Sequence record: PV610739.1
Source: Escherichia phage SP1
Length of the DNA: 44,529 nucleotides
Reading direction: 5' to 3' (one strand)
A program made the translations under genes and the position numbers. The notes beneath the pieces are model-generated. The model saw only the letters and a list, made by a program, of their open reading frames with translations, was not told where the DNA came from and did not search any database. Positions within the stretch are counted from its first letter, which is position 1. Every line of letters begins with the position of its first letter. This document shows, in pieces, positions 3,729 to 4,871 of the stretch.

Positions 3729-4871
3729 ATGCACCCGCAAACTAAAATTACCGACGAGCAATTGATCGCAGAATTGCAATCTGGCACTACCTCGAAAGAT
3801 ATTGCGAAGAAATACGGCATTGCCCTTCGAAATGTCTATATGCGCAAAGCCCGCCTGTCGAAGAAAGGCATTGGTCACGGTAACGATGCCGTAATCCGTA
3901 AGCGCGTTGCCGATGGCTTCGGCGTTAAGCGTGTATCAGCCCTGGTGCGCGGCAATGGCGAAGAGGTCATGTCCTGGGTTATCACCGAGCAGGACAAGGA
4001 GCGCCAACTCGAAGCAATGCGCGCCGTTGTCGAGGGTATGAACAGCGAAATCTCACCGGCAGCACCAGTAAGCGCCCCGCCAGTCCCGATCCAGGCACTC
4101 GACCTGCTTAACCTGTACACCGTGTCAGACTTCCACCTGGGGATGTTGGCGTGGGGTGAGGAGACTGGCGAGGACTGGGATATGGCGATCGCTGAAGACC
4201 TGTTCTACCGCTGGTTTGTCGAAGCCTTCGCCCGCGCACCGGACGCAGGCACTGCCGTTATCAATATCCTCGGTGATATGGCGCACTTTGACAGCCTTGA
4301 TGCCGTCACCCCCGCCAGTGGACACGTACTGGACGCAGATACCCGCTACCAGAAGCTGGTCCGCTACATGATTCGCATGGTGCGCAACGTGGTTGAACTG
4401 GCGCTGCAAAAACACCATAAGGTCAAACTGCTAATCGTCCAGGGTAATCATGACGAGTCCGGTATGATTTGGCTGGCTGAGATGTTCAATATCCTGTACG
4501 AGAACGAGCCGCGCGTCGATGTGGATACATCCCCGGACGTTTACAAAATGGTGCAGCACGGTAAAACAACACTGTTCTTCCACCACGGGCATAAAGCACG
4601 TTTTGACGCCATCGAGCCTGTCATGATTTCTAAATTCAGACAGGCTTTCGGGTCCAGTGAGTACAGCTACGCGCACGTAGGCCACTTGCACCACCAGAAG
4701 ATTGTAGAATCCCGCAACATGATTGTTGAACAGCACCGGACCCTTGCCGCGAAAGACGCATATGCAAGCCGCGGCGGTTGGATGTCCGGTCGAAGTGCTA
4801 ACGTCATCACCTATAGCGCCAACTACGGCGAAGTAGCGCGCTTAACCATTAGCCCGGAAATGTTGAAATGA
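3729..4871 (+). CDS. HTH domain fused to calcineurin-like metallophosphoesterase
   Basis: N-terminal HTH-like segment (TSKDIAKKYGIALRNVYMRKARL); phosphoesterase motifs SDFHLG, GDMAHFD, GNHDE, HHGH, GHLHH. Confidence 0.65.
   Translation: MHPQTKITDEQLIAELQSGTTSKDIAKKYGIALRNVYMRKARLSKKGIGHGNDAVIRKRVADGFGVKRVSALVRGNGEEVMSWVITEQDKERQLEAMRAVVEGMNSEISPAAPVSAPPVPIQALDLLNLYTVSDFHLGMLAWGEETGEDWDMAIAEDLFYRWFVEAFARAPDAGTAVINILGDMAHFDSLDAVTPASGHVLDADTRYQKLVRYMIRMVRNVVELALQKHHKVKLLIVQGNHDESGMIWLAEMFNILYENEPRVDVDTSPDVYKMVQHGKTTLFFHHGHKARFDAIEPVMISKFRQAFGSSEYSYAHVGHLHHQKIVESRNMIVEQHRTLAAKDAYASRGGWMSGRSANVITYSANYGEVARLTISPEMLK

Follow-up and report, generated by a model that had tools for sequence, protein, structure and literature searches.

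Metallophosphoesterases (MPEs) related to calcineurin serve several purposes in phages and cells. Phage lambda encodes a Ser/Thr protein phosphatase of the PPP family, and the phosphatase domain of bacterial Pnkp is lambda-phosphatase-like. In Mre11, motif II reads GDLFH. The archaeal polymerase subunit PolD DP1 has an N-terminal OB domain. Mycobacteriophage Bxb1 gp47 doubles as a recombination directionality factor. Nucleases of another kind, the HNH endonucleases of the HK97 gp74 type, adjoin and assist some terminases. The early gp48 of mycobacteriophage A10ZJ24 is a toxic phosphodiesterase/DNase that acts on linear, circular and genomic DNA; it breaks down the host genome and thereby disables host defences (PMC12287305). 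The present analysis concerns an open reading frame (ORF) of Escherichia phage SP1 (PV610739.1). The 44,529-nucleotide stretch, referred to as the window, is the essentially complete ~44.5-kb genome of a Dhillonvirus-like E. coli siphophage. ORF 3729-4871 (+) codes for a fusion of a DNA-binding-type helix-turn-helix (HTH) and a calcineurin-like phosphoesterase core (Table 1).

The ORF list and the sequence define a coding sequence (CDS) of 380 amino acids (aa) with an ATG start; the same CDS is annotated in close relatives of SP1. Five ordered motifs, DxH, GD, GNH[D/E], H and GHxH, are located at residues 134/136, 182-183, 239-242, 286 and 318-321, respectively. All five had been named in a preliminary description of the sequence and all are present in the translation. 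Conservation was scored over an alignment of 56 representatives, which are 31-48% identical to the query. The ligand residues are invariant or kept in at least 90% of these divergent homologs, and the motifs are therefore not chance matches. The family consensus is GDFLHxD for motif II and GNHD for motif III, without DRG. D202, R206, R262 and R355 are further conserved residues specific to the family. The Pfam models Metallophos and Metallophos_2 matched below their gathering scores, one with 20.1 bits (cutoff 21.5) and the other with 21.9 bits (cutoff 27). The sub-threshold scores thus indicate a divergent MPE branch that is missed by general models. A domain search had been suggested in the preliminary description. 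The motifs align and the active-site residues are kept, and the refuting condition named there was thus not triggered. Beyond the weak Metallophos scores, no SbcD or phosphatase family was matched. The NCBIfam collection gave no match. ORF 3729-4871 is a member of the calcineurin-like MPE superfamily with an intact active site. The core is predicted to bind a binuclear metal centre and to hydrolyze phosphoesters, and is probably catalytically competent.

From the 56-sequence alignment, AlphaFold2 (AF2) gave a confident model, with a mean pLDDT (predicted local distance difference test) of 91.4 and a pTM (predicted template modelling score) of 0.77. The HTH-like segment expected at the N-terminus appeared as a three-helix HTH at residues 9-45. 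This HTH, similar to sigma region 4 and to NarL-type domains, is of the DNA-binding type and is kept across the whole MPE family. A flexible segment separates it from a family-specific beta-hairpin. For this hairpin and the following helix (residues 64-107), structural comparison gave no distinct match. A low-confidence linker leads to the catalytic core, which has the beta-sandwich MPE fold. The protein ends with the last strands of this core (residues 357-374) and a helix of only four residues. The best structural matches were nucleic-acid nucleases. Generic phosphodiesterases scored close behind (LpxH, 13.7; MJ0936, 13.4; Rv0805, 12.2), and PPP protein phosphatases ranked far down (PP5, 9.0; calcineurin, 8.8; PP1, 8.6). 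Matching predicted viral structures are all of uncharacterised proteins, which carry the name "calcineurin-like phosphoesterase" or the automatic label "DNA polymerase II small subunit". A single-sequence search against PDB sequences retrieved only spurious matches to designed repeat proteins.

The protein matches phrog_704 ("DNA repair exonuclease") over the full length (E 4e-160), with residues 5-380 aligned to profile positions 2-390 of 390. Members of phrog_704 share the architecture of HTH, beta-hairpin and MPE core and comprise mostly 370-420 aa. Homologs were detected by tblastn in 2062 phage records. The carriers belong to Dhillonvirus, Kagunavirus, Jerseyvirus, Drexlerviridae and Webervirus, and include Vibrio, Ruegeria and Rhizobium phages. 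An exhaustive HMMER search yielded 4618 clusters (50% identity) at E <= 1e-3 and 1128 at E <= 1e-30. Homologs also occur in alpha-, beta- and gammaproteobacterial chromosomes and in metagenome-assembled genomes, where they presumably sit in prophages. Labels are inconsistent and range from DNA repair exonuclease, phosphoesterase and calcineurin-like phosphoesterase to HTH LuxR-type, winged-HTH and even oxidoreductase. The phrog_704 label itself is homology-derived. SP1 thus carries a typical representative of a phage family that is very widespread and has already been catalogued; the sequence family is not new. Among the matching records, the host labels of two (OQ221563.1 and MG065636.1) look questionable. 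'Acinetobacter phage NJ01' shares 91% identity with E. coli Dhillonviruses over 5 kb. The homolog of 'Campylobacter phage A16a' is 46% identical to the query, about the same as the neighbouring Klebsiella and Salmonella phage entries.

The gene context differs between lineages. Of 522 Drexlerviridae genomes, 508 carry the MPE gene ahead of the lysis cassette; a gene for a polynucleotide kinase (PNK) or a deoxynucleoside monophosphate (dNMP) kinase follows it directly in many of them and is the commonest next gene where an SH3 gene is lacking (PMC13164509). Klebsiella phage Kp109 has the order MPE, HAD_PNKP phosphatase, a P-loop protein annotated as dNMP kinase, and lysis genes. The HAD_PNKP phosphatase (PF25109, E 2.6e-20; 7166-7657 (+) of its locus) is mis-annotated as 'DNA repair exonuclease' in GenBank. 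In the Jerseyvirus Salmonella phage FSL SP-101 (5747-8271), the homolog is part of an opposite-strand island within the tail module. Its companions are annotated 'immunity to superinfection' and 'anti-repressor Ant', and the island hints at early or accessory expression there. In other lineages, the homolog stands among early or replication genes.

Neighbours were surveyed in 36 dereplicated viral loci from IMG/VR. ORFs were called, and up to four neighbours per side were scanned against PHROGs. The locus search was seeded with a 10-sequence alignment, the 56-sequence alignment being too divergent as a seed. Downstream genes encoded endonuclease VII (4 loci), HNH proteins (~4), holins (3), Q-like antiterminators (3), PNK (2) and endolysins (2). 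Upstream genes encoded nucleotide kinases (3), phrog_474 proteins (3), DNA polymerases (2), single-stranded DNA-binding proteins (2), exonucleases (2) and Holliday-junction resolvases (2). Across 42 independent bacterial loci, deoxynucleotide metabolism was the most recurrent downstream class, with dNMP kinase (3), nucleoside 2-deoxyribosyltransferase (3), dNMP 5'-phosphatase (2) and dATP/dGTP pyrophosphohydrolase (2). A direct check of ORFs of the size of the large terminase subunit (TerL) found TerL within three to four genes downstream in four of the 36 viral loci, and a fifth locus had a Mu-type portal; TerL was nearby in ~4 of the 42 bacterial loci, hence in only ~8 of all 78. The neighbours that recur are lysis genes and enzymes of deoxynucleotide metabolism.

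Our favoured explanation, which may well hold and may equally well fail, is a stand-alone, HTH-tethered and Rad50-independent DNA (exo)nuclease, with DNA as a putative substrate and with nuclease chemistry and biological role as predictions. The nuclease reading is based on the invariant active site, the confident AF2 model, a motif II consensus with the histidine seen in GDLFH of Mre11, the family-wide HTH, and the bias of the neighbours towards DNA and deoxynucleotide enzymes and towards the early/late boundary. The MPE core would be a two-metal phosphodiesterase of the nuclease branch of Mre11, SbcD and PolD DP1. Its own N-terminal HTH would hold the enzyme on DNA, in place of the Rad50/SbcC clamp and the capping domain. 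In the middle-to-late phase of infection, it may trim or break down DNA, either the host chromosome or replication and recombination intermediates of the phage. The resulting dNMPs could feed the nucleotide-salvage enzymes of the phage, and the nuclease would thereby supply or clear substrates for salvage and DNA maturation. It would not act as a packaging factor. A10ZJ24 gp48 sets a precedent for a phage MPE that works as a DNase on its own, a functional analogy between separate families (PMC12287305). That the family forms a new class of Rad50-independent, HTH-guided Mre11-like nucleases with a dedicated role, i.e. host-genome-destroying shut-off or counter-defence, or concatemer processing, is rather unlikely.

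Several observations count against the DNA nuclease. In profile comparison with the PDB, the family reached T. maritima Mre11 only at E 0.6 and over motifs I-II. An hhalign comparison with the mycobacteriophage MPE gave a probability of 7.4% over 38 columns around motifs IV-V only. No single neighbour family exceeds ~4 of the 36-42 loci, and guilt by association is therefore weak in such a heterogeneous context. The genome already has a PD-(D/E)XK exonuclease, a Gp2.5-like annealing protein and a VRR-NUC nuclease, so the need for one more nuclease is not obvious. Literature searches for characterised members, T1 host-DNA-degradation genes and essentiality screens retrieved no experimental work on any phrog_704 member, and the main text of genome-wide phage fitness papers leaves the family unmentioned.

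The position of the gene in SP1 is that of its genus. Over a 5-kb stretch around the MPE gene, SP1 shares 96% identity with Escherichia phage vB_EcoS-101114BS4; most of the stretch is covered by 95 phage records. The conserved Dhillonvirus order is holin, holin, endolysin, small ORFs, MPE, a 70-aa ORF, the small terminase subunit (TerS), TerL and portal. The packaging-side location had been called unusual, but within the genus it is the standard arrangement, syntenic in the 95 records. "Directly upstream of the terminase genes" is roughly correct (~330 nt to TerS), except that the 70-aa ORF and a hairpin intervene. The ATGA overlap between the MPE gene and this ORF suggests translational coupling. 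The 70-aa ORF was found only in Dhillonvirus relatives among those examined and does not resemble the ORF that follows the homolog in Jerseyvirus. As a conserved partner of the MPE it is unsupported beyond Dhillonvirus. The MPE gene, together with ORF 3368-3580 before it and the 70-aa ORF after it, is bracketed by two terminator-like hairpins that set the three apart from the lysis cassette and TerS. The record of phage vB_EcoS_WFI has annotated terminators at positions equivalent to both. The MPE gene therefore appears to lie in a small unit of its own. A search for repeats and operator-like motifs around the gene gave only short, chance-like matches. Conserved operonic linkage to TerS/TerL, as expected of a terminase accessory, was not found over the 36 viral and 42 bacterial loci. 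The terminase adjacency is a genus-specific arrangement and no clue to function. A function read from the packaging adjacency is not supported, as the position is conserved within Dhillonvirus but not across the family.

A packaging-associated nuclease would trim branches, hairpins and ends of concatemers or assist pac cleavage for a headful terminase. Such a role is unlikely. It draws on the proximity to TerS that is maintained in the 95 Dhillonvirus records, on TerL or portal genes three to four genes downstream in ~5/36 viral and ~4/42 bacterial loci, and on the branch-removing endonuclease VII and the Holliday-junction resolvase as recurrent neighbours. However, the 70-aa ORF and a terminator-like hairpin separate MPE gene and TerS, and the terminase is distant in most lineages, where the homolog occurs before lysis genes (Drexlerviridae), in the tail module (Jerseyvirus) or among early and replication genes. 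The same low probability is assigned to a small-molecule or nucleotide phosphodiesterase, which would cleave cyclic nucleotides, (p)ppGpp-like or dinucleotide signals and thereby blunt anti-phage signalling or remodel nucleotide pools. The fold fits, nucleotide-metabolism enzymes are enriched among the neighbours, and the conserved D202, R206, R262 and R355 could bind a nucleotide. This activity would leave the conserved DNA-binding-type HTH unexplained; moreover, the PADLOC defence and anti-defence models did not match the protein, and nucleic-acid nucleases take the top of the structural comparison. Somewhat less probable still is a nucleic-acid end-healing 3'-phosphatase or 2',3'-cyclic phosphodiesterase resembling the Pnkp MPE, which would repair DNA or RNA ends in concert with the products of HAD phosphatase, kinase or ligase genes. 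It is the counterpart of the DNA-end processing enzyme named in the preliminary description. A HAD_PNKP phosphatase follows directly in Kp109, the third gene downstream in locus L028 encodes an ATP-dependent DNA ligase, and elsewhere in SP1 itself one ORF is like a HAD phosphatase and another, small one is like a ligase. 'PNK' family neighbours are frequent in Drexlerviridae (PMC13164509) and were present in 2/36 viral loci. However, the PNK-like ORFs examined are already phosphatase modules, and a second 3'-phosphatase is not obviously needed. The protein also lacks the GDxVDRG signature of the lambda-phosphatase branch, and PPP-type folds score lower in the structural comparison. A kinase-only PNK that needs the MPE as its 3'-phosphatase was rejected, since the 'PNK' ORFs are HAD phosphatase modules.

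It is very unlikely that the protein is mainly a transcription regulator, in which the LuxR/sigma-r4-like HTH turns on late genes and the MPE core serves as sensor or accessory. The HTH does look like sigma region 4 and NarL-type domains, the gene lies at the early-middle/late boundary beside lysis or packaging genes in several lineages, and Q-like antiterminators adjoin 3/36 loci. The catalytic residues are invariant across thousands of clusters, however, which argues for an enzyme, and no repeated operator-like motif surrounds the gene. The preliminary description had preferred a protein phosphatase or a DNA-end processing enzyme to an Mre11/SbcD nuclease. The protein is indeed no canonical Mre11/SbcD, and DNA-end processing stays a live option, but a protein phosphatase is unlikely. 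A Ser/Thr/Tyr phosphatase of the lambda kind, acting on host or phage proteins, was already disfavoured and is the least probable of all explanations. It shares the superfamily and the five generic motifs. The absence of GDxVDRG and GNHE, the lower structural similarity to PPPs, the unexplained HTH fusion, and Pfam and NCBIfam searches that matched no phosphatase family argue against it.

Table 1. Positions of the HTH-MPE gene, its motifs and domains, and other features in the SP1 window.
Feature	Position	Strand	Basis or remark
Complete HTH-MPE CDS	3729..4871	+	ORF list; phrog_704 full-length match; annotated Dhillonvirus CDSs 97-99.5% identical
Shine-Dalgarno-like AGGAAG, 9 nt 5' of ATG	3714..3719	+	Read from sequence
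Three-helix N-terminal HTH, residues 9-45; LuxR/GerE, sigma region 4 or resolvase type	3753..3863	+	
Family-specific beta-hairpin (residues 64-88, consensus GF.vKG.STL..dG....WVK) and helix (residues ~90-107)	3918..4049	+	
MPE catalytic core, residues 126-380; reaches the C-terminus, no capping domain after it	4104..4868	+	
Motif I, SDFHLG, residues 133-138	4125..4142	+	D134, H136 invariant
Motif II, GDMAHFD, residues 182-188	4272..4292	+	G182, D183 invariant; H186, D188 at least 90% conserved
Motif III, GNHDE, residues 239-243	4443..4457	+	N240, H241 invariant; D242 at least 90% conserved
Motif IV, HHGH, residues 285-288	4581..4592	+	H286 invariant
Motif V, GHLHH, residues 318-322	4680..4694	+	G318, H321 invariant; H319 at least 90% conserved
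Terminator-like hairpin closing the lysis cassette; marks the 5' limit of the putative MPE unit	3279..3302	+	Sequence
70-aa ORF, phrog_20931; start overlaps the MPE stop codon (ATGA)	4868..5080	+	
Terminator-like hairpin with T-run, between 70-aa ORF and TerS	5088..5108	+	Sequence
TerS (5201-5749) and TerL (5749-7134); neighbours outside the MPE unit	5201..7134	+	phrog_3064 terminase, E 9e-72; Terminase_6N, Terminase_6C
Small VRR-NUC nuclease	34772-35050	-	
DUF2800/PD-(D/E)XK exonuclease, ~325 nt from the Gp2.5-like annealing protein (37760-38548)	38873-40273	-	

Elsewhere in the genome, the classified non-structural ORFs comprise a family A polymerase, helicases, a helicase-primase, a PD-(D/E)XK/DUF2800 exonuclease, a Gp2.5-like annealing protein, methyltransferases, a VRR-NUC protein and a HAD phosphatase. 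SP1 carries a separate set of recombination nucleases, independent of the MPE. ORF 30167-30637 (-) is filed under a PHROG named 'polynucleotide kinase'. It is a HAD-type phosphatase module without a kinase domain, as is the Kp109 copy. ORF 31311-31817 (-), 168 aa, matches phrog_10530 'DNA ligase' (E 2e-87) and no Pfam family. Ligases otherwise known are much longer than 168 aa. The 'DNA ligase' label is doubtful because of the short length and the missing Pfam match. ORF 10201-11010 (-), 269 aa, phrog_1965, is located on the opposite strand within the structural block, between the plus-strand ORF 9715-10053 and ORF 10968-11819, and has the look of a moron-type insertion. The opposite-strand ORF 25861-26835 (-), which closely follows ORF 22387-25833 (1148 aa), encodes a membrane protein of phrog_1265 (category 'moron, auxiliary metabolic gene and host takeover'), which could be a superinfection-exclusion gene.

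As an annotation the gene is ordinary, and its terminase-side position should not be taken as functional linkage. Few non-structural genes are as widely conserved as the MPE gene in several siphophage groups that serve in phage therapy and as model collections. Its carriers include therapeutic phages of the Dhillonvirus, Kagunavirus, Jerseyvirus, T1-like and Webervirus groups. If the nuclease reading is true, it could account for the breakdown of host DNA and for nucleotide salvage in phages of the T1 type and their relatives. An HTH-tethered Mre11-like nuclease would show how an MPE nuclease core works without the Rad50 clamp. A new class of such enzymes would represent a widespread, so far unstudied infection step in thousands of siphophages.

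Among known systems, HNH-terminase pairs resemble the Dhillonvirus locus in a nuclease-like gene near the terminase genes. They differ in fold, the MPE adjacency is not family-wide, and in SP1 an ORF and a terminator-like hairpin intervene. The lambda phosphatase and the SP1 MPE are both phage-encoded members of the calcineurin-like superfamily. The SP1 protein has neither GDxVDRG nor GNHE, the signatures of PPPs; it reads GDMAHFD and GNHDE where the family consensus is GDFLHxD and GNHD, and its closest structural neighbours are not PPPs. Archaeal PolD DP1, a 3'-5' proofreading exonuclease, is only 15% identical. Its DP2 partner was not found in the window, where the polymerase belongs to family A, and the N-terminal region, occupied by HTH and beta-hairpin, shows no sign of an OB domain. 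In comparison with Mre11/SbcD, the protein has an N-terminal HTH instead of a capping domain and a Rad50/SbcC partner. The capping domain that follows the nuclease domain of Mre11/SbcD is absent in the AF2 model, and NCBIfam SbcD did not match. As the preliminary description had stated, no SbcC-like partner is encoded over the whole 44.5-kb genome: a Rad50/SbcC ATPase was found neither among the classified ORFs of the window nor among the most frequent neighbour families of the 78 related loci. A canonical SbcCD/Mre11-Rad50 identity was rejected because capping domain and ATPase partner are missing. The histidine three residues after the aspartate in the family motif II recalls GDLFH of Mre11, a resemblance only. 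The cluster A mycobacteriophage MPE (A10ZJ24 gp48, Bxb1 gp47) differs from the SP1 protein in a length of ~255 aa, the lack of an HTH and the location of motif I at residue 10. Membership in one family was rejected on the low hhalign probability, leaving kinship at the superfamily level. The recombination directionality role of Bxb1 gp47 is irrelevant to SP1, an integrase-less phage. As a stand-alone phage MPE without Rad50, the mycobacteriophage enzyme is nevertheless the best functional analogy for the SP1 protein.

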